A program made the position numbers and the translations under genes. The notes beneath the pieces are model-generated. The model was not told the DNA's origin. It saw only the letters and a program-made list of their open reading frames with translations, and did no database searches. A DNA stretch of 64,000 bases from IMG/VR virus record IMGVR_UViG_3300020576_007701. The stretch is one strand, 5' to 3'. Below are positions 907-64,000 of this stretch, one piece after another; within the stretch, counting starts at the first letter, position 1; each line of letters begins with the position of its first letter. The DNA is from a virus. Taxonomy: Duplodnaviria; Caudoviricetes.

Positions 907-3216
907 ATGATTAATTATGTAAAAGTCAAAAAAGACCTGTATTTCGCCCAACAAATTATTGGGACTGCAGCTCAAAAAGAAAAAATTGTTGAGGTTAATA
1001 CTCATCATTTATTCATTATAGATTGTTCTGGCTCAATGCATGGGCAACTTTCTCAAATTAGAAAAGATTTATTTAACAAAATCTCTACTATTTTAAAACC
1101 TAACGACTCTACAACCATTATTTGGTTCTCTGGTAAAAATGAATTTGGTGTGGTTTTAGAAGATTATCAAGCAAACGGTAAAATGAGCTTAACAAACATT
1201 AAGGCCGCCATTGATAAATATTTAACTTCACAAGGTTTAACAGCATTTAAACAACCATTACAAGAGGCTAAAAAAGTGATTCAAAATGTAATTAAAACTA
1301 AAAAAGATTATTTACACTCACTATTTTTCTTAACAGATGGTTGCGATAATTGCTGGCCAGAAAAAGAAATTCTTAGCGCCATTGATGATTTAAAAGAGTT
1401 TGTAAACGGCGCTACAATTGTAGAATATGGTTACTATTGCAATAGAGAACTTATGAGCAGAATGGCTCAAACGTTTGGCGGTATCCACACTGTTTCTAAA
1501 AACTTTCAAGATTTAAACCCATATCTTGATAAACAATTTTCAAGCGACAACAAAAGTAAAAAAACTTATGTTCAATTAGAAGCTATTCCAGAAAGCCAAG
1601 TAGTTTGGAATGTTGTTGATAAAGATGTAATTCTTTATTCTCCAAATGAAAGCAATGAAGTGGCTATTGGCGTAGATGGAGAAACGAGTATTTATTACCT
1701 TACCAAAAAAGAACCAATTGGCAAATCTCTTGGAGATGCAGATTATTTCAACAAACAATATTCAAGCGGCAAATATTCTAATGATGAAATTCTTAAAGGA
1801 TTTTATGCAGCGTTTTTTGCTTTCAGTAGAAAAAGTGATTACAACACTGTGTCAGACTTATTGAAAATGACAGGTGATGCAAATTTAATCAAGATTAAAG
1901 CAAATACTTTCGGAACTCAAAAAATTACTGAATTAGAAGAAAAATTTGTGTCTTGTGTAAATGACTCTTCTCAAAGATATTTGATTGGATATAATCCAGA
2001 TCTTGAACCAGCCGAGGACGCATATTGCGTTATTGACATGTTAACTGATCTTATGAGTAATGAAAAAAATGCTTGGTACCCACAACATGAAGCTTTCTCA
2101 TACAAAAAGATAGGTTCAAAAACTGTATCTAAAGCAGAAACAGTAAATAAAGAAGATAAAGCTAAAATGGAACAACTTCTTAAAGAGGGTAAATTAGAAG
2201 ATTTACAAAGCGCTCTTGATGAAGCAAAAAATAAATTAGGAGAAGATCTTGAATTTTTTTACGATAATGACTTGCAACCATGTTCTTTCAACGACCTTAC
2301 TTGGAATGAAAAAAGGGCAAATCTCTCAGTTCTTGTGACATATCCAGGATACGTTATGCTTCCAGAAAACAATTTTGGAATTGAATCTAAATTCAAAACA
2401 ATGATCTTCAGAAATTACACAATTGTAAAAGATGGAATAATCCACTCTTATAATTTACCAGTTTCTTTATCAGAAGACACATTTAAAAAATTGCAATTAA
2501 ACGGTTTATTACCAGGAGAAACTTATCAAAGTGAAAAAATTTATGTTTTAAATTTTGAAGAAGTTCCTGTAATAAATAGAAAAATGGTAAGTTCATTGTC
2601 CGCTGTAGATGTATTTACAAACTCTTGGGAGTTGTTAAAACTTCAATCAGCAAACACTGTATTTACAGCTCTTAAAAAGAGATTGTTTAAAGGTGTTGAT
2701 AAAAAATTCGAAGATCTATATGGCACAGATGCTACCACTTGGTTAGCTAGTCTTGGCCTTAAAGATAGCGGTTTTGCGCCTGCTAAACTTGTTGAAAAAG
2801 CTGGAGAAGAAATTGTTGTTAATACACTTGAAATTAAAATTGATAAATTATCAACAAGCAATTCAGCAAAAGATGTTGAAGCAACTGAAAAAATGTTAGA
2901 TTCCAATGGAGCAGTAACAGGTCGTCAAGAATTGTTGGTACCAGCTATCAATGAGTTTAGGCAATTTGTAAAAGGTCTTAAAGATCCTAATGATATGGAC
3001 GCTATTAAAGATTGGTTATATGACAAATCTCGTTCTTTCAGAACTCAAAAAACAAGATTAATGACAGAGATTTCAAAATCTAAATTTTTAACCATTGTTG
3101 GAAAGTCTTGGTTTAAAGAATTTCCAGATAGAAGTCAAAAAGAAATGACTTTAAATCTTGATTCAAAAGATATCAAGTTTATTGTTGAAGATAAAATGTC
3201 TACAGTTAAACTTTAA
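907..3216 (+). CDS. vWA (MIDAS) domain protein with large C-terminal extension
   Basis: IIDCSGSM (DxSxS), LTAF and FFLTDG MIDAS elements; 769 aa. Confidence 0.8.
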   Translation: MINYVKVKKDLYFAQQIIGTAAQKEKIVEVNTHHLFIIDCSGSMHGQLSQIRKDLFNKISTILKPNDSTTIIWFSGKNEFGVVLEDYQANGKMSLTNIKAAIDKYLTSQGLTAFKQPLQEAKKVIQNVIKTKKDYLHSLFFLTDGCDNCWPEKEILSAIDDLKEFVNGATIVEYGYYCNRELMSRMAQTFGGIHTVSKNFQDLNPYLDKQFSSDNKSKKTYVQLEAIPESQVVWNVVDKDVILYSPNESNEVAIGVDGETSIYYLTKKEPIGKSLGDADYFNKQYSSGKYSNDEILKGFYAAFFAFSRKSDYNTVSDLLKMTGDANLIKIKANTFGTQKITELEEKFVSCVNDSSQRYLIGYNPDLEPAEDAYCVIDMLTDLMSNEKNAWYPQHEAFSYKKIGSKTVSKAETVNKEDKAKMEQLLKEGKLEDLQSALDEAKNKLGEDLEFFYDNDLQPCSFNDLTWNEKRANLSVLVTYPGYVMLPENNFGIESKFKTMIFRNYTIVKDGIIHSYNLPVSLSEDTFKKLQLNGLLPGETYQSEKIYVLNFEEVPVINRKMVSSLSAVDVFTNSWELLKLQSANTVFTALKKRLFKGVDKKFEDLYGTDATTWLASLGLKDSGFAPAKLVEKAGEEIVVNTLEIKIDKLSTSNSAKDVEATEKMLDSNGAVTGRQELLVPAINEFRQFVKGLKDPNDMDAIKDWLYDKSRSFRTQKTRLMTEISKSKFLTIVGKSWFKEFPDRSQKEMTLNLDSKDIKFIVEDKMSTVKL

Positions 3217-3229
3217 GTTTACACGCAGC

Positions 3230-3262
3230 AAAAAAAGCCCCAGGATCACTGGGGCTTTTTTT
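3230..3262. terminator. Bidirectional intrinsic terminator
   Basis: A7-GCCCCAG-gatca-CTGGGGC-T7 between convergent genes. Confidence 0.85.
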
Positions 3263-3458
3263 ATTTCTTATCAAACCACTTCCATCCCAACAACATCCTA
3301 GTTGTAATTCTGTGAAACCATGATGGTTTTTTATAATACATAAAAGCTGTTGAATATGCGCCGCCATCTCCTCCAGTAATATCGTAACCACCAACAATTT
3401 TTGGTTGTGTTGACAATGAAAAAGAATCAACGGAATATTCACCTGATGCCATTTGCAT
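3261..3458 (-). CDS. Small hypothetical phage protein (KKPSWFHR...GWKW type)
   Basis: Likely start is ATG 3458 (MQMASGE), just after the stop of the upstream glycosyltransferase; the track start at 3527 overlaps that gene. Confidence 0.6.
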   Translation of the reverse strand: MQMASGEYSVDSFSLSTQPKIVGGYDITGGDGGAYSTAFMYYKKPSWFHRITTRMLLGWKWFDKK

Positions 3459-3460
3459 AA

Positions 3461-4810
3461 TTATACGGTTTGAGGTGCTGATATAGATTGAATATAAGCG
3501 TCTCTTTCTGCTTTTCTTGTCTGACACATGTCTCTATAGAATTGAGCTCTCTGAGCGCTCACAATTTCCATTTCATAGGTATTTTTTACCCACTCATGTA
3601 AATTATTTGCCAAGGTATCTCTATAATCTTTATCTAAGATTACTTTTTTGATAGCTTTGTACCAACCATCTTTATTGTTTTTTACAAGAATACCATTCAC
3701 TCCGTCTTTAATAAGTTCACGATAAATACCAAAATCTTGAGCAATAATACACTTCTTTTTCATACCAGCCTCTACAATTTTAAGTTCAGATTTAACTAAG
3801 TTAAAGTTATTTGGAACTGATTTTATTGTGCCTGGTCTAGGATCATTTTCGTGTACCACTTCCCCGCTTTGTAAAACCTTCACTCTGTCAACTTCTTGGA
3901 TTGGCGCTAATGTTACGTCACAATAATCATAGTGCTTACCAAATTGAGTAAGAGGTAAAGTCCATCTACGAACATAACTTTTGTTATATTGTTCTGCGTA
4001 CTCTTCTCTTTTTATTTTCATTAACCATTTAAAATATTCAGGATCTTCAAGTTTTAATTGAGAATATTTGTTTGTAAATATTTCTTCAAACTTACACCAA
4101 ATTGTTTCATGTGGTAATATCGCCCTTGTATTTCTAGAGCCATCTTGTGCAACCTCTGTTATAGAGCCACGAATATCAAAACCACACATAATGAATTGAA
4201 ACTTATCTTTTACTTCTTGATTACCATATAAAAGAGACATAGAATGATCTATTAAACTTAAATCATGCATATGTGAACTACCACCTATCCAAGAAATTCT
4301 ACACTTTTCTGAAGGGTTTGGTTGAACTTCAGATTTCCACATAGCATGACTTGCATCTATTGCATTTGGAATAACATGAACATTTTTATTGTATGCTTTA
4401 ATGTGAGAAGCAAATATGTCCGTTGTACACGTTACATAATCTGCTATTTTCATTGTGCTTAATATTTTTTCAGTAAGTTTTTCTGTTTTTGCCACCTCAT
4501 ATAAAGGGTGTGTGGTTGCTGGAGCCCAATAGTCATCAATATCCATAATTAATACAACGCCAGCAGCCCTTAATTCAGCAAACACAGCATCCTGCGTTTC
4601 AACTGGACCAAGAGCTCTATGAAAATGGATAATATCAAATTGTTTTAAATATGCCAAATTTTCCACATTTGGACCAAGATTAATTTCAATCTCAAACTCT
4701 TCGCCATAATGTTTTTCAAGGGATTGCGCTGGCCAAATATTTCTCCAATGACCCACGCCGTGTGAGTCCGAGGGTACCATTAATACTCGTATTTTTCTAT
4801 TTTCACTCAT
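3461..4810 (-). CDS. Glycosyltransferase, GT-B fold (GT4-like)
   Basis: GVGHWR, DIDDYW, VIPNAID, WIGGSSH, KSELKIVEAG, GVNGILV motifs. Confidence 0.8.
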   Translation of the reverse strand: MSENRKIRVLMVPSDSHGVGHWRNIWPAQSLEKHYGEEFEIEINLGPNVENLAYLKQFDIIHFHRALGPVETQDAVFAELRAAGVVLIMDIDDYWAPATTHPLYEVAKTEKLTEKILSTMKIADYVTCTTDIFASHIKAYNKNVHVIPNAIDASHAMWKSEVQPNPSEKCRISWIGGSSHMHDLSLIDHSMSLLYGNQEVKDKFQFIMCGFDIRGSITEVAQDGSRNTRAILPHETIWCKFEEIFTNKYSQLKLEDPEYFKWLMKIKREEYAEQYNKSYVRRWTLPLTQFGKHYDYCDVTLAPIQEVDRVKVLQSGEVVHENDPRPGTIKSVPNNFNLVKSELKIVEAGMKKKCIIAQDFGIYRELIKDGVNGILVKNNKDGWYKAIKKVILDKDYRDTLANNLHEWVKNTYEMEIVSAQRAQFYRDMCQTRKAERDAYIQSISAPQTV

Positions 4811-5588
4811 TTATAATTTGTTTTATATGTTTAATTGTTTTTTCTTTTTGAAACATATAATCTTGTTCCCAAATTATAAAGAGTTTATAACCACTTTTTT
4901 CAGCTAACTCTTTTTTTATTCTATCTTGCTCCCAAAGCTCATGTGCATACTTTTGTTTTTTTTGATTGAAATAGTCTGCTTTATACTTGTTTGGATTGCA
5001 ATGCCAGTAATCGCCATTATATTCGATGATCACATTTTTGCCTTTTATTAATATATCGTATTTTAAATTCTCTATCTTAAATTGACCTTCTATAATAAAA
5101 CCACTTTTCTCTAATTCTGTTTTTATTTCTTTTTCAGCTTTTGATATTGGAGTTGTATTAAGCTTACCATTAGCCTGGTTTACATAAGCGTTTTTACGTT
5201 GTATAGCTTTTACATGATCTAGACTGCCATCTTTGTATTTTGTTTTTAAAGCCTCTGATACTGATTTTCTATGTATTGGATTGGCCATGACATTATCACT
5301 TCCACAACATTGACCAGTTCTTGATTTAGAATTCTGAATTTTAGATTTAATACTATGTTTTTTTCCAAAAAAAGGATTATTTTTCCCTGTTTTCGAACAC
5401 TTCAAACAAAGCGCCTTGGCTACTTCAGCTTTTCTAATATTTCTCAACAATATAGCATAATCCAAAGAAGTTTGATGTATGTTCTCTTTGCAATCTGGAC
5501 ATTGCCTATATCCATACCATCTATTATCTTTTTGATAAACTTTAAATTTTGCTATCTCCTCCTGAAGTTGCTCTTGTGTTCTTCTCAT
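4803..5588 (-). mobile_element. Free-standing homing endonuclease gene: Zn ribbon + NUMOD3 + DUF559/Vsr-like nuclease
   Basis: CPDC..CLKC, NNPFFGKKHS (NUMOD3), YDILI..IIEYNGDYWH..IIWE. Likely start ATG 5588 (MRRTQ). Stop overlaps the GT start. Confidence 0.75.
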
Positions 5589-25658: not shown

Positions 25659-26084
25659 ATGTTAACTATAAAAGAGTGGCTTTTAAAAAATAATCCAACT
25701 TTTAAAATAGATTGGAATATATTGGGTTGGCAAAACAATCCAAATTTTTTCGGAGATCAAAAAGAATGGAACAATGTGCTTCTCACAAAAATTAACGAAA
25801 TTTCAGCACATATACATATGGCCACATTATTAGGCGGTGCTGACACAATAGAAGTGCACCCAGATAATATGCATTTCATAGAAAGTTTTGACTACTATAA
25901 TGCAACAACAAAAACTATAGGGTTTAGATATTCCGTAATTGTAGATAATCTTATTTCTAAAAATACAATCAATGTGTATTTAAGTGAACAAGCTATAAGA
26001 AATTTTTATAAATTAAATAAAAAAGGGTTAGATATAGATTTTAAAAATACTTATGGGGTTATTACATTAATAAATGGAAATTAA
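25659..26084 (+). CDS. Stand-alone fragment resembling the axial domain of a T4-like major capsid protein
   Basis: QKEWNNVLLTKINEISAHIHMATLLGGAD...RYSVIVD resembles the gp23 segment LLFQIDKEAVEIARQTGRGEGN...KYRVYID (recalled, not searched). Confidence 0.45.
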   Translation: MLTIKEWLLKNNPTFKIDWNILGWQNNPNFFGDQKEWNNVLLTKINEISAHIHMATLLGGADTIEVHPDNMHFIESFDYYNATTKTIGFRYSVIVDNLISKNTINVYLSEQAIRNFYKLNKKGLDIDFKNTYGVITLINGN

Positions 26085-26117
26085 AAAACGGTTTTAATAA
26101 CTGGAATACCTGGCCAG
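26074..26117 (+). pseudogene. Relic original 5' end of gmd
   Basis: ATG GAA ATT AAA A[A]A ACG GTT TTA ATA ACT GGA ATA CCT GGC CAG reads MEIKKTVLITGIPGQ if one A is restored to the A6 run; matches the Gmd Rossmann start (ITGITGQDG). Confidence 0.75.
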
Positions 26118-26128
26118 AAATTTTACAC

Positions 26129-26136
26129 TATTTATA
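26129..26136 (+). promoter_or_regulatory. Putative late promoter TATTTATA (representative; about 18 copies listed in findings)
   Basis: The same sense-strand motif lies roughly 5-40 nt upstream of most structural and endonuclease genes. Confidence 0.6.
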
Positions 26137-26147
26137 ATAAAAATATT

Positions 26148-26984
26148 ATGAAAGAAGAAAACAAAAAAACAGGTATTAAAAAATGTAAACAGTGTTTTAA
26201 AGAATTTCAAATTAACTTGCGAAACAAAAGAAGTGCCAATAAAATATTTTGTTCATCAACATGTGCCAAAAAAAATAACGGCAAAAACAATAAAGGTAAA
26301 AAACGTTCTTTAAAATATAAAAGCATGATGAGTGAAAAAACTTCAGGGAAAAATAATGGTTTTTTCGGAAAGACACATTCTAAAAAATCAGTGCAAAAAA
26401 TGAGCAGTTCCAGTTTGTGGCAAGAAGACAAATTTAAATATTGTAATCTGAAAAACAAAGAAAAAGAGGTTTTAGATGGATTAATGCTTAGTGATGGTTG
26501 TTTGTCAGAAAAATCCAGAATATCAGCTAGACTAACTTTTGGATTTAAATTTAAAGAAACTTGTGAAGAAATATTTAAAACAATAAGTTCGTTAAATTTT
26601 TCTCCAATTTGGCAAAGCGAACAAACAAAATGTTGGCACACAAAATCAAATATGTATCATGATTTATTAGTTGAAAACAAAAGATGGTATCCACAAAAAG
26701 AAAAAATTGTACCATTAGATGTCTTGATTACTAAAACTTCTTGTTATTGGTGGTTTATAGGAGATGGCTATAATATTGATGGAAATGTGTATTTGTGCAC
26801 AGACTCCTTTTCTAAAAAAGATAATGTTTTTTTGATTAACAAATTAAAAGAGAACGGATTTAATCCTTCATTAACAAGCACAAATAGAATCAGATTCAAC
26901 AAAAAAGAAACAATACTTTTTTTAGAGTGGATAAAACCTGAAGGTGAAATAATGGAACAATATAAATATAAATGGAAAATATAA
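26148..26984 (+). mobile_element. Free-standing homing endonuclease gene: Zn finger + NUMOD3 + LAGLIDADG
   Basis: CKQC..FCSSTC, FFGKTHS, VLDGLMLSDG and WWFIGDG LAGLIDADG helices; TATTTATA at 26129-26136; stop overlaps the gmd start by 13 nt. Confidence 0.85.
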
Positions 26985-59449: not shown

Positions 59450-60121
59450 ATGCCAGGAATATATCAAATAAAAAACAAAATTAACAACAATATCTATGTT
59501 GGATCAGCAAAAGATTTCTCACGACGCATAGGTGAACACACAAAATTGTTGAAAAAAAACAAACACCACTCTTCTTATTTACAACATGCTTGGAATAAGT
59601 ATGGAGAAGATAATTTTATTTTTGGATTACTTGAAGTGGTTGAAGATTTGTCTCAATTGATTAAGCGTGAACAGCATTACATAGACACTTTAAATCCTGA
59701 ATATAACATGTGTCCTACAGCTGGCTCTAGGCTTGGGTCTAAAACCACAAAAGAAACAAGAGAAAAAAATCGTCAAAACGCCACCAAATTTTGGCTTGGT
59801 AAAAACCTATCAGAAGAAACTAAGAAGAAGATTGGTGATGCCAACAGAGGTAATCAACACACTCAGGAAGCAAAAGATAAGATCAGCGCAAATCATAGCA
59901 GACATAATCTTGGAAAAAAATTTTCTGAAGAGTCTAAATCAAAAATGGCAAAGGCTAAAGCAATGCCAATCTCACAATACACATTAGATGGTCAATTTAT
60001 TCGCTCCTGGGACTCTGGCAAGCATGTTCAGAATGAAACTGATATGAACCAGGGTAACATAAATAAAGTGTGCCTAGGCAAGTATAAACAAGCTTATGGA
60101 TTTGTTTGGAAGTTTATCTAA
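59450..60121 (+). mobile_element. Free-standing GIY-YIG homing endonuclease gene with NUMOD3/NUMOD1 domains
   Basis: GIYQI..IYVGS..R...H..LQHAWNKYG..REQHYI..EYN; SEETKKKI repeats; ISQYTLDG...AYGFVWKF. Confidence 0.9.
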
Positions 60122-61397: not shown

Positions 61398-61429
61398 ATT
61401 GCTAAGTCAATGATTTTTAGCTATATTTG
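61398..61429 (+). promoter_or_regulatory. Bacteroidota-type promoter
   Basis: ATTG-N20-TATATTTG just upstream of the primase ATG. Confidence 0.55.
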
Positions 61430-61434
61430 CATGT

Positions 61435-62418
61435 ATGTCCAGCGACAAAAACAATCTTTTAATAATCAATATTGTCCAAGGTTTTCTTGGAACACCCAGA
61501 CATTCAAGCGGTGCTGAGTCAAGGTTGCAATGGGAATTTAATTGTCCTTCTCCAAAATGTAGAGGTGATCATAATAAATTTAATTTAGCATATCGCTCTG
61601 ATTCTAAGATATTTAAGTGCTGGAAATGTAAATATAGCGGTTTTGTAACAACTCTTGTTGGTAACCACGGATCAAAAGACGATATAGCCAGGCTAAGGCT
61701 GGTTTTGCCAAAGTATGACCAATCTAGCTTTCAAACTTTTAAACGCCCAGATATTGACTATACGTCTATTGCGTGCGATTTGCCAGTGGGATACATGCCG
61801 TTATCCCAAGAAAGAAAAAGCAAGCTCTGGGAGCGTGCTTGGGAGTACATGACAATAGAACGAAAAGTTAGTCTTCCACAAATTGATAAGTTTAAAATAG
61901 GTTATACAGAAAACGGACCAAGAAAATATAGAATTATAATGCCTTCTTTGAATGCGGCTGGTAGAATTAATTATTATGAAGCAAGAGCTTATTTAAAAGA
62001 TGCCAAGAGACCGTATTGGAAACCAGACTCACCTCATGTGCACGATATAATTTATAATGAATATTATATAAATTGGGATTTGCCGATTTACTTGGTAGAG
62101 GGTGTTTTTGATTCATACAGAATTCAAAATTCTATACCACTACTTGGCAAAACGCCATCTCCTCTTTTGATAAGTAAATTATTAGAGCATAATAGCACTG
62201 TAATAATCTGTCTTGACTCAGATGCGTTTAAAGATAGTGTAGATTTTTACAAAATGCTTTCTTCTCTTGGATTAAATGTTTTTTTTATTGATCTAAAGGG
62301 TGAAAAAGATATTTCAAAAATATATGAAGATCATGGGCAAGAAAGATTAAACGAAATATTAAAGCAGCCAAAAAGAATTGATACTCTTTTTGAAATTAAT
62401 AAAATACTAAACGAATAA
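61435..62418 (+). CDS. DNA primase (Zn-binding + TOPRIM)
   Basis: CPSPKC..CWKC; RIIMPS; LVEGVFD; CLDSDA; KDIS. Confidence 0.88.
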   Translation: MSSDKNNLLIINIVQGFLGTPRHSSGAESRLQWEFNCPSPKCRGDHNKFNLAYRSDSKIFKCWKCKYSGFVTTLVGNHGSKDDIARLRLVLPKYDQSSFQTFKRPDIDYTSIACDLPVGYMPLSQERKSKLWERAWEYMTIERKVSLPQIDKFKIGYTENGPRKYRIIMPSLNAAGRINYYEARAYLKDAKRPYWKPDSPHVHDIIYNEYYINWDLPIYLVEGVFDSYRIQNSIPLLGKTPSPLLISKLLEHNSTVIICLDSDAFKDSVDFYKMLSSLGLNVFFIDLKGEKDISKIYEDHGQERLNEILKQPKRIDTLFEINKILNE

Positions 62419-62450
62419 AATACGGAGTTAAATGTTTTAAAATATAAAAT

Positions 62451-62753
62451 ATGAAAAGATTAATTAATGCAATAAAAATGGGTTTTTTTACATATAAAAA
62501 TCCAAAAATTTTTCAGCAATATACTTTTAAAATGCTTGCCGATTTATTTGAACTAATTTTAAAGGTATCTCATGAGGATAGGCATATGATGACTCATATT
62601 GCTTTTATTCATCCAGAAGACGGCACCGAACATCAGATAGTATCTATTTGGGCTGGAGCTGGTGCCGCTGCAGAACCAACAAAAAGAATAAAAGAATTAT
62701 TAGAAGAAAACTCTAGGTTAAAAGCATTGTTAAACCAACAAATTAAAAATTAA
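62451..62753 (+). CDS. Hypothetical protein
   Basis: 100-aa ORF. Confidence 0.6.
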   Translation: MKRLINAIKMGFFTYKNPKIFQQYTFKMLADLFELILKVSHEDRHMMTHIAFIHPEDGTEHQIVSIWAGAGAAAEPTKRIKELLEENSRLKALLNQQIKN

Positions 62754-62762
62754 CAACCATTC

Positions 62763-62792
62763 ATGAAAATTGCACATTTAGCGGATATACAA
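62763..62792 (+). pseudogene. Relic original 5' end of the SbcD/Mre11 gene (MKIAHLADIQ)
   Basis: Ten codons matching the downstream gene start MRICHLADIQ; the frame then runs into unrelated sequence and stops at 62846. Confidence 0.88.
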
Positions 62793-63754
62793 TTATTTAT
62801 TTGTGAATGTCAAATATCTATGCTTTTTTATCATATTTATCAATAAAAACAAATTATGATAAAATGTGAAATATGCAAACAAGAGTTTAAACAAATTAGT
62901 AATACCCATTTAATTGAACACAATATAGATAAAAATGAATATAGAAGACTTTTTCCAGAAGCAAAATTGAAAAGTGTTTGGAATTTAGGCTTAAATAAAG
63001 AAAGCGATAAGAGGGTTCTAAAAAACGCCTTGGCGCTTAAAGCTAATCACTGGGTTAAAGACGAAGAAAAAAAGAAAAACATATCTAATAAAATAAGTCT
63101 TAGTAAGACTGGAGGTAAAATAAGTGAGAAAATTAAAGAACAATTCAGGCAAAAATATAAAGGTCAAGGCAATCCAAATTTTGGTAACACATGGTCTGAT
63201 GAACAAAAAAAAGAATCATCTGATAGAATGAAAGAAAAATATAAAGATCCAGAATATGTTGAAAAGTTTAAAAATTCTCATTGGAGTAACAATGAAGAAA
63301 AAAAACAAATAGTCACAAAAAAAGCTTCAGAGTATATAGCAAATGCAATTAGTTTAGGGATAATTAAAATTAATACTGGATATAAATGCGGCTGGATTTA
63401 TTCTGAAAAAATGAAACAAGAATTTTATTACATGTCTTCTTACGAACTTAGAAGAATGATTTTATTAGAAAAATCAGAATTGGTAAAAGAGTATACAAAC
63501 AAACATGGAATAAAATTGCAATACAATAATAAAAAAGGTGGTTTATCTTATTATATACCAGATATTTTAATTACATTTTACAATGGGGATGTACGTTTAG
63601 AAGAGGTAAAGGGCTATGTAAGAGATAAAGATGTTTTTACATTAAAAAATGAAGTTGCAAAATCATATTGTAAAGAAAATAATATAGAGTATAAAATAAT
63701 ATTTAAAAAAGATATAGAAAATTTATGAGAATTTGTCATTTAGCGGATATACAA
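62775..63754 (+). repeat. Perfect 18-bp direct repeat CATTTAGCGGATATACAA flanking the endonuclease cassette
   Basis: Copies at 62775-62792 and 63737-63754, 962 nt apart. Confidence 0.95.
62856..63728 (+). mobile_element. Free-standing endonuclease gene: C2H2-like Zn finger + NUMOD3-like + TnsA-like PD-(D/E)XK nuclease
   Basis: CEICK..THL..H, GNPNFG..WSDE, YMSSYELR, YIPDILI...LEEVKG; TATTTAT at 62834-62840; ATGA overlap with sbcD. Confidence 0.8.
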
Positions 63755-64000
63755 GTAAGATTTGGATCTAGACACGACGAGTACAGAGCTGTGTTTAAAA
63801 GCCTTATTGAAGATCTTGAAAAAGTAAAACCAGACAGAATCGTGGTTGCTGGAGATATTAGCCATCATAAAATAAATATGTCTCCTGGTTCTTTTAATTT
63901 AATTTCAGAACTATTAATAGGTTTATCAAGGGTTGCACCAACTGATGTGATTTTAGGAAACCACGACATGAACTTGCAACAGTTAGAACAAGGTGATGCA
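63725..64000 (+). CDS. SbcD/Mre11 (T4 gp47-like) recombination nuclease, 3'-truncated by the window edge
   Basis: Not in the track. MRICHLADIQ, VVAGDISH and LGNHD phosphoesterase motifs; near primase and RuvC. Confidence 0.88.
   Translation, partial: MRICHLADIQVRFGSRHDEYRAVFKSLIEDLEKVKPDRIVVAGDISHHKINMSPGSFNLISELLIGLSRVAPTDVILGNHDMNLQQLEQGDA

Follow-up and report, generated by a model that had tools for sequence, protein, structure and literature searches.

How can a nuclease gene come to sit among the most conserved codons of another gene, apparently with no intron or intein to carry it, and leave behind a gene that can still be read from its first residue to its last? The question is raised by a locus at the right-hand end of a 64,000-nt stretch of DNA, which we call the window and which comprises bases 32001-96000 of the 152,940-bp IMG/VR record IMGVR_UViG_3300020576_007701 (32% G+C; CheckV completeness 52%), from a large uncultured phage of the Caudoviricetes. 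There, the first ten codons of a fused sbcD-sbcC gene (sbcDC) occur twice, and a gene for a TnsA-like endonuclease stands between the two copies. To our knowledge, homing endonucleases are thought to survive in essential genes only via introns, inteins, or gene splitting. We argue here for another way: a free-standing homing endonuclease cassette was inserted after codon 10 of sbcDC and supplied a replacement for the gene start that it cut off. We would put the probability of this reading at about 0.8.

The duplicated gene start and its empty counterparts

The two copies of the gene start form a direct repeat (D2) of 37 nt with 84% identity, at 62759-62795 and 63721-63757, spaced 962 nt apart (all parts of the locus lie on the plus strand). 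Each copy opens with an ATG and specifies the ten N-terminal residues of a calcineurin-type phosphoesterase: the first, which we call the stub (62763-62792), as MKIAHLADIQ and the second as MRICHLADIQ. Codons 2-4 of the second copy (R-I-C) are unlike those of the stub, and codons 5-10 are identical in the two, making a perfect 18-bp core with its left copy at 62775-62792 and its right copy at 63737-63754. These are the only matches to the 18-mer in the 64 kb, even with two mismatches allowed; dinucleotide-preserving shuffles led us to expect 0.01 matches, and none of 100 shuffles held two. Such a duplication of the first ten codons, perfect over 18 bp, had been claimed in a reading made from the letters of the window (the original prediction), and it was borne out. 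Between the copies, there is a 63-nt spacer (62793-62855) and a 290-aa open reading frame (ORF; 62856-63728) and nothing more, and the TGA of this ORF overlaps the second ATG as ATGA (63725-63728). It had also been said that removing 962 nt restores an intact gene; when the first copy is joined to the sequence after the second, the result is MKIAHLADIQVRFGSRH..., which is exactly the gene start of the closest relative.

What is the gene whose start is doubled? From the second ATG, it runs from 63725 to 67192, with its first 92 codons in the window (63725-64000) and the rest past the window's end, and it encodes a 1155-aa protein that has a Metallophos match at 1e-7, an AAA_23 domain, sequence matches to PDB structures of SbcD/Mre11, and GD, GNHD, and GDIH motifs. 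The earlier naming of the gene as SbcD/Mre11 fits the SbcD domain and needs widening, in that the gene is an SbcD-SbcC fusion. (The fusion is common to all relatives examined, and a CPTC zinc-hook-like motif lies near residue 785.) The nearest cultured relatives of the SbcD domain, in Tenacibaculum and Microcystis phages, are only 24-32% identical to it. Phosphoesterase motif I usually reads D-x-H. Here (63746-63754), it is D-I-Q in the window and most relatives, with D-I/V-H only in three related loci (L007, L010, and L018). The original prediction had placed the insertion inside motif I; the junction falls after codon 10, at the end of the motif.

Is there a version of this gene without the insertion? 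A DNA similarity search with 61400-64000 against 50,697 phage records gave no match. Relatives were found by protein-pattern searches of viral contigs, which first gave nine related loci, and the allele set comprises ten occupied alleles (the window, L005, L012, L014, L015, L018, L019, L104, L106, and L109), five distinct empty ones (L008/L009, L002, L003/L004, L007, and L010), and one footprint (L006). The occupied alleles were drawn from IMG/VR, Logan, and ENA assemblies of different projects. The closest relatives of the window, L008 and L009 (90% SbcD identity over the first 220 residues), are empty. In the window, the native left flank of the stub is a 100-aa ORF with no assigned function (62451-62753; no match in Pfam or PHROG); its ortholog (L008:3690-3992; 72-93% nucleotide identity when taken 60 nt at a time) is followed by 11 nt and then the uninterrupted start MKIAHLADIQVRFGSRHDEYRAVFK. 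This is the empty allele that had been predicted for relatives, with the nuclease-free start MKIAHLADIQVRFG directly behind the same upstream ORF. In other words, presence and absence are polymorphic at one homologous site with the same flanks, occupied in the window and empty in L008/L009. The stub itself, at 28 of 30 positions identical to the working start of L008 and likewise behind the orthologous ORF, is codons 1-10 of the original sbcD, cut off from their gene. The nuclease is also missing from L002-L004, L007, and L010, and nuclease-free relatives have one start only, where the original prediction had warned that relatives without the endonuclease might carry both.

The occupied alleles are alike in layout, ten of ten having a native upstream gene, a 10-codon stub, a promoter-like spacer, and the nuclease gene, followed by ATGA and the full gene where the contig reaches. 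The stub stands 65-95 nt upstream of the nuclease ATG in all ten, and the junction is always after codon 10. (The L109 contig stops within the nuclease gene and its downstream side is not included, so that counts for the right junction refer to nine alleles.) All nine alleles whose contig spans that junction show the ATGA; that is, every nuclease copy with a readable downstream context has the four-base overlap with fused sbcDC, and no copy examined departs from this strict linkage of nuclease to sbcDC. An immediate TAA or TAG closes the stub in seven of the nine relatives; in five of them it follows codon 10, and in L012 and L104 it takes the place of codon 10. There is no immediate stop in L018 or in the window, where the TAA of most relatives reads TTA and the stub is therefore left open after codon 10, running on 27 codons to a stop at 62844-62846. 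Nine occupied alleles can be aligned over the spacer, with a mean identity of 72-77%, and in relatives, the spacer opens with TAA or TAG. The upstream genes differ between occupied alleles, with the primase itself next to the stub in some and an unrelated small ORF (57-100 aa) in others, and the alignment starts at the stub; therefore, the left boundary of the shared element is the end of the stub. Read from these alignments, the cassette is a stop codon, a spacer of ~60 nt with a promoter-like motif, the nuclease gene, and a second copy of codons 1-10. Its insertion beheads the original gene, the cassette gives it a new head, and the original ten codons are left as a dead stub in their native context.

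One might worry that all of this is an assembly artifact or a chimeric contig, since the sequence comes from a metagenomic assembly. Modern assemblies are not mis-joined at repeats as short as 18 bp, however, and the same architecture is found, in diverged sequences, in ten independent assemblies. This shared layout disposes of the artifact that the original prediction had listed among its possible refutations, and we give it next to no credence.

The working start and the nuclease

If a gene has two starts, which of them works? In four alleles, the stub is unable to start a protein: L005 has ATA and a 1-nt deletion, L109 has ATT, L014 has lost the first two codons so that its stub adjoins the upstream stop, and L015 has two codons deleted. 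The downstream ATG and N-terminus, however, are intact in all nine occupied alleles whose contig reaches them. Since the ATG or the frame of the stub has been lost in several alleles, the downstream ATG must be the working start. The footprint allele tells the same story from the other side. L006 is without stub and nuclease, and the last ~35 nt of the nuclease ORF (KLVFKKDLNKL, then stop) precede its ATG, with the ATGA overlap kept; therefore, the 3' end of the nuclease gene now acts as the region ahead of the host gene start. By this comparison, L006 is a deletion footprint, in which the nuclease was lost and its 3' end kept. (In the same contig, at L006:2677-3748, the primase is apparently broken into two ORFs of 256 and 148 aa, and there is an N in the sbcD start region; this may be sequence error.)

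These observations bear directly on the most familiar explanation for a nuclease gene inside another gene, which is that the 962 nt are spliced out as a self-splicing intron (group I or group II), or skipped by translational bypass, and that the protein starts at the upstream ATG. One can see its appeal in the window alone, where the upstream copy is intact and in frame and where taking out 962 nt restores the frame. It fares poorly among the relatives. Most of them have a stop directly after the stub, the upstream ATG or frame (what would be the start of the upstream exon) is lost in four alleles with the downstream ATG always kept, and L006 retains the downstream start only. Nor is there much room or any recognizable core for a ribozyme: the noncoding part is only 63 nt, and searches with Rfam gave no match at E<=1 in 62300-64000 of the window and none at the gathering score in L012, L014, L018, and L019. 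Given four decayed stubs, the L006 footprint, and no Rfam match in five occupied loci, there is no need to invoke splicing, as the original prediction had supposed when it held that the damage was neutralized without it; we consider the intron or bypass very improbable.

What, then, does the cassette encode? The 290-aa ORF matches Pfam PF08722 (TnsA-like N) at 29.4 bits against a cut-off of 26.5. Its family is small (16 proteins among 5.8 billion), with 15 close members all of ~290 aa and a most distant member (P0016) at 31% identity; in the 15, E197, P235-D236, and E250-x-K252 are invariant, which is the PD-(D/E)XK pattern. An AlphaFold model built from the family alignment has a mean pLDDT of 78, rising above 85 in the C-terminal nuclease domain, and its best Foldseek matches in the PDB are TnsA chains (1t0f and 1f1z) with E ~4e-5 and probability 1.00 over ~135 residues. 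The N-terminal part has a CxxC...HxxxH finger and then central helical repeats that score as NUMOD3 in some members; a finger with a helical DNA-binding region is typical of phage homing endonucleases. Pairwise dN/dS is 0.10-0.25 among nuclease pairs apart from the distant outgroup L018, and synonymous sites are saturated (pS 0.45-0.71); therefore, the gene has been kept functional over a long time. Taken together, the domain, the predicted fold, the invariant residues, and dN/dS make the protein look like an active, free-standing homing endonuclease. Among cultured phages, the sole match to the nuclease domain is a protein of Bacillus phage Moonbeam (KM236246.1 / NC_027374.1, 11042-11551), 30% identical and annotated “endonuclease.”

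The likeness to TnsA, a subunit of the Tn7 transposase, might suggest that the locus arose by Tn7-like transposition and that the repeat is a target-site duplication. Here, Pfam and the fold do agree that the nuclease domain is TnsA-like. The likeness, however, goes no further than the C-terminal ~135 residues, in their fold and catalytic motif (1f1z, 1t0f), with only 18% identity, and the N-terminal two-thirds of the protein are finger and helical region. The element is a single gene without TnsB- or TnsC-like neighbors or other partner transposition proteins, its flanks being the primase, small ORFs, and sbcDC; no transposon ends, in the form of terminal inverted repeats joining the ends of the cassette, are present. 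The repeat is 30-37 nt and imperfect rather than 5 bp, and its copies differ in a manner that tracks donor vs. recipient. We think transposition of this kind exceedingly improbable.

The cassette also appears to bring its own means of expression. The spacer holds a conserved GC-T5 tract and the heptamer TATTTAT, which the original prediction had called a late-promoter motif. The account given there of the interval was right about the TnsA-like ORF, the ATGA overlap, and the presence of TATTTAT; the motif occurs twice, however (62794-62800 and 62834-62840), and only the second, 22 nt before the nuclease ATG, is conserved in relatives. Over the whole genome, TATTTAT lies within 60 nt upstream of 49 of 167 long ORFs (~30%), peaks 20-24 nt before the start codon, and is strand-specific (18 for the reverse complement); among the 21 permutations of its letters, it ranks first (mean 15.6; next best 25). 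The heptamer probably serves this phage as a promoter element, and because it stands at tail genes and also at many others, the class “late” is not established. A scan for sigma-70 promoters and terminators found no terminator and no excess of promoter-like matches (15 vs. 10.4 +/- 3.1 in shuffles). The ATGA overlap fits translational coupling of sbcDC to the nuclease gene, and the promoter of the element may also drive sbcDC, as the original prediction proposed.

The spacer may also fold. It has two short conserved helices, in which 93% of cells are paired compared with 19-52% when the partners are slid. One is an inverted repeat, GATAT(A/T)CA-N12-TG(T/A)ATATC (62785-62814; alignment A2 columns 7-14/27-34), which links the stub, through its final eight bases, to the cassette. 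The other is a six-pair hairpin (alignment A2 columns 62-67/79-84), in which the 3' half of the promoter motif pairs with the nuclease start codon. Covariation is weak in both (reached by 30-44 of 500 shuffles), and single-sequence folds of the spacer are mostly no better than shuffles (z = -0.8, +0.1, and +0.3, with only L019 at -2.6); we treat the helices as leads only.

The age and possible movement of the insertion

How might such an element get about? We propose that the nuclease would cut nuclease-free alleles in or near the conserved stretch and that repair would copy the cassette from an occupied genome, the left arm being the stub with the DNA upstream of it and the right arm the stretch of sbcD that begins at codon 11. 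Since both arms would fall where the gene is best conserved, the element could move between phages with unlike upstream genes. Once in place, the nuclease would be transcribed from its own TATTTAT promoter and sbcDC translated by reinitiation at ATGA, the 3' end of the nuclease gene having become the translation start region of the host gene. The life of the element would then be a cycle in which it invades, its stub decays, and now and then it is lost.

Three observations speak for an element that is still mobile. First, the stub of the window departs at a single position from the consensus drawn from stubs and naive empty starts. Mean identity is 57% at third codon positions of the nuclease (saturated) and 77-81% in the stubs. 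With the stub near pristine, the sister L008 empty, and the stubs of L005, L014, L015, and L109 decayed, the window's stub is, on the sequence comparison, a fresh one. Second, the working copy of the window has Cys4 (TGT), as do five other occupied alleles from both clades, whereas Ala4 is found in the window stub, in L008, and in all other nuclease-free alleles; by this distribution, codons 2-4 of the working copy are putative arrivals with the cassette. Third, the trees of host gene and nuclease conflict at one place. In the SbcDC tree (815 residues), L014 and L015 are grouped (100/99) and a grouping of L005 with L015 is rejected (AU p=0.00014); in the nuclease tree, L005 and L015 are grouped (92/91) and L014 with L015 is disfavored (AU p=0.039).

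Against these observations stands a quieter history, in which the insertion is old and immobile, having entered once in an ancestor by illegitimate recombination and been inherited vertically since, with empty alleles arising from deletion between the repeats. The nuclease would in this case have been domesticated, perhaps to regulate SbcDC or to act as its partner, or it would have been retained because translation of sbcDC depends on it. Much can be said for this: the nuclease and SbcDC trees agree at clade level with similar divergence, synonymous sites are saturated and the protein conserved, the linkage of nuclease to sbcDC is strict in every examined copy, and the direct repeat gives a path to precise loss. 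It does not explain, however, why the window stub should be near-identical to the working start of a 90% relative, when an old pseudogene should resemble the stubs of L005, L014, and L015; why Cys4 follows the nuclease against the host tree (window vs. L008); why there is a local tree conflict; or why the junction is constant while upstream genes vary between occupied alleles. On balance, we judge it unlikely, with a small but real share of our belief.

The reading that we prefer, of a mobile cassette with a spare gene head, is not without its own difficulties, and we gather them here. In their clades, the nuclease tree and the SbcDC tree match, with similar divergence, and most of the nuclease's history may, as far as the trees go, have been vertical or a matter of homing among close kin. 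The conflict over L005, L014, and L015 is marginal on the nuclease side (p=0.039), and because the tested group was picked after tree inspection, it amounts to moderate evidence of movement. If repair had copied the cassette into the window's lineage, one might look for a co-conversion tract downstream of the insertion; comparison of the window with L008 gave no clear step, the 60-nt identity being noisy (72-93%), and the dip at nt 61-200, over which L014 and L004 are closer, does not exceed that noise. Nor is recoding of the working copy apparent: third-position G+C is 30% in codons 2-14 and 26% in the rest of the gene (p=0.21), and no position is altered in all working copies relative to naive starts, though differences exist. 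The window's working copy closely matches the likely target and would need some means of escaping self-cleavage.

Finally, there is the 18-nt identity itself. A long exact run between stub and working copy occurs only in the window (the longest in other alleles is 9 nt), it includes a GCG codon absent from every other stub, and the working copy resembles donor-type codons 2-4 joined to native-type codons 5-12. Simple one-break repair does not explain the 18/18 identity of codons 5-10, and this, too, must be set on the debit side. Later gene conversion between the copies, or two-molecule repair, would explain native codons 5-10 on both sides. The direct repeat, for its part, offers a route to precise loss of the cassette.

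A second cassette and the known systems

Is the cassette at sbcDC one of a kind? The same genome holds a second of the same design, at 26074-26984 (plus strand). A decayed gmd start (26074-26118; one base lost, reading MEIKK.VLITGIPGQ) is followed by a spacer with TATTTAT at 26128-26134 and a LAGLIDADG_2 ORF (26148-26984; PF03161, 2e-15), the last codons of which overlap the working start of gmd at 26972 (PF16363, 5e-136). The insertion point is after ..TGQ of the Rossmann motif, and a 90% relative (L020) has gmd without the nuclease. Homologous LAGLIDADG nucleases in L100-L103 all adjoin gmd; L100 keeps part of the stub, and L102/L103 have only a 97-aa nuclease remnant, still overlapping the gmd start. 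With sbcDC and gmd, there are thus two unrelated nuclease families with the same layout in one genome.

Could replacement of an N-terminus, then, be a general strategy of phage homing endonucleases, by which expression of the host gene comes to depend on the parasite? We offer this tentatively, as a possibility that we think somewhat doubtful. Under it, the TATTTAT promoter of the element, the ATGA overlap, and the 3' end of the nuclease gene would take over the promoter context and start region of the host gene. If true, the dependence of an important gene would shield the nuclease from decay and loss, and it would explain why nuclease and host gene have long diverged together under purifying selection, why footprints always keep the nuclease 3' end (L006 at sbcDC; L102/L103 at gmd), and why two unrelated nuclease families share a layout in one genome.

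The gene sbcDC has also been entered at a second site, after GDIH (~residue 215-221), where other endonuclease genes split it into two ORFs and the downstream piece restarts with a short new leader (L008:4001-8507; L019:3367-5870; L107 [LR756508.1], 1027-5252). The nuclease genes differ: a 268-aa ORF with PHROG homing-endonuclease matches and no Pfam match in L008/L009, a weakly DUF559-like one in L019, which bears both insertions, and a 305-aa TnsA-like relative in the 484-kb phage LR756508. Just upstream of the primase, a NUMOD1/NUMOD3 (I-HmuI-like) endonuclease gene is found in L015 (1-359), L017 (1-362), and L019 (367-1200, minus strand). From these gene maps, the primase-sbcDC neighborhood is a putative hotspot for nuclease genes and small-ORF turnover. 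Elsewhere in the window, a third homing-type endonuclease gene (GIY-YIG and NUMOD3; 59450-60121) follows a tail gene.

What would it mean if the cassette is what we take it to be? It would be a third route by which a homing endonuclease can live in a phage gene, by insertion into the most conserved codons near the gene start with a spare gene head. Such a target would be common to diverged phages, and the homology arms would lie inside the gene, so that the identity of the upstream gene would not matter; the start signals of the host gene would end up within the parasite. In annotation, a short “orphan” ORF or a doubled gene start next to a nuclease gene would be read as a scar, with the downstream start the one that works, and for recombination maps, cassette sites would mark exchange boundaries between phages. 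The element is also a candidate for a new class of site-specific nuclease, TnsA-like and free-standing, and the ten occupied alleles, five empty alleles, and one footprint form a natural series (naive, freshly invaded, long-occupied, and deleted) from which its life cycle might be worked out.

How does all this compare with what is known? Free-standing homing endonucleases of the seg and mob kinds in T4 normally lie between genes and cut a neighboring gene (PMC2988022). The cassette is like them in being a single-gene nuclease with presence/absence polymorphism and carried flanking markers, with its own phage promoter (here a candidate) and possibly a hairpin over its start codon; the six-pair hairpin recalls those that delay translation of T4 homing endonucleases (PMC2988022). 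It is unlike them in that the element sits inside an ORF with a replacement gene head and that its nuclease family is different. Closer in position are the genes in pieces, such as mobE in nrdA of phage Aeh1, mobA in T4 gene 39/60, and seg in gene 43 of phage 25 (PMC2988022). There, too, a homing endonuclease lies, without intron or intein, in a conserved and functionally critical part of the gene for a phage enzyme, and the host function is presumably kept. Theirs, however, are two polypeptides that reassemble, whereas here the upstream fragment is 10 codons long and decayed in four alleles, and the whole protein comes from the downstream piece; true genes in pieces occur in sbcDC itself at the second site (L008, L019, and LR756508).

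To call this manner of damage control unprecedented would be too strong, because mobile ORFs (mORFs) in the mitochondria of fungi achieve its mirror image at 3' ends, although a phage version at the N-terminus was not found described in the literature that we searched, in which subscription journals were thinly covered. The mORFs carry replacement gene ends (C-termini) in atp6 of Allomyces macrogynus and in atp6, atp9, cox2, and nad3 of Glomus (PMC3630166), and further hybrid genes are atp9 of Rhizopus and cox2 of Mortierella (PMC3630166; also PMC7487136). As at sbcDC, an endonuclease ORF (theirs LAGLIDADG or GIY-YIG) lies in a conserved protein gene with no intron and a foreign gene end, and the native end, displaced and no longer expressed, persists as a remnant closest to a relative's gene. 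Theirs is the 3' end, often in frame with the nuclease ORF; ours is the 5' end, and a 5' version must also come with a start codon and start region and, it seems, with a promoter. Here, the element lives in a phage and its nuclease is a TnsA-like PD-(D/E)XK enzyme, and the likeness is one of design, not of common descent.

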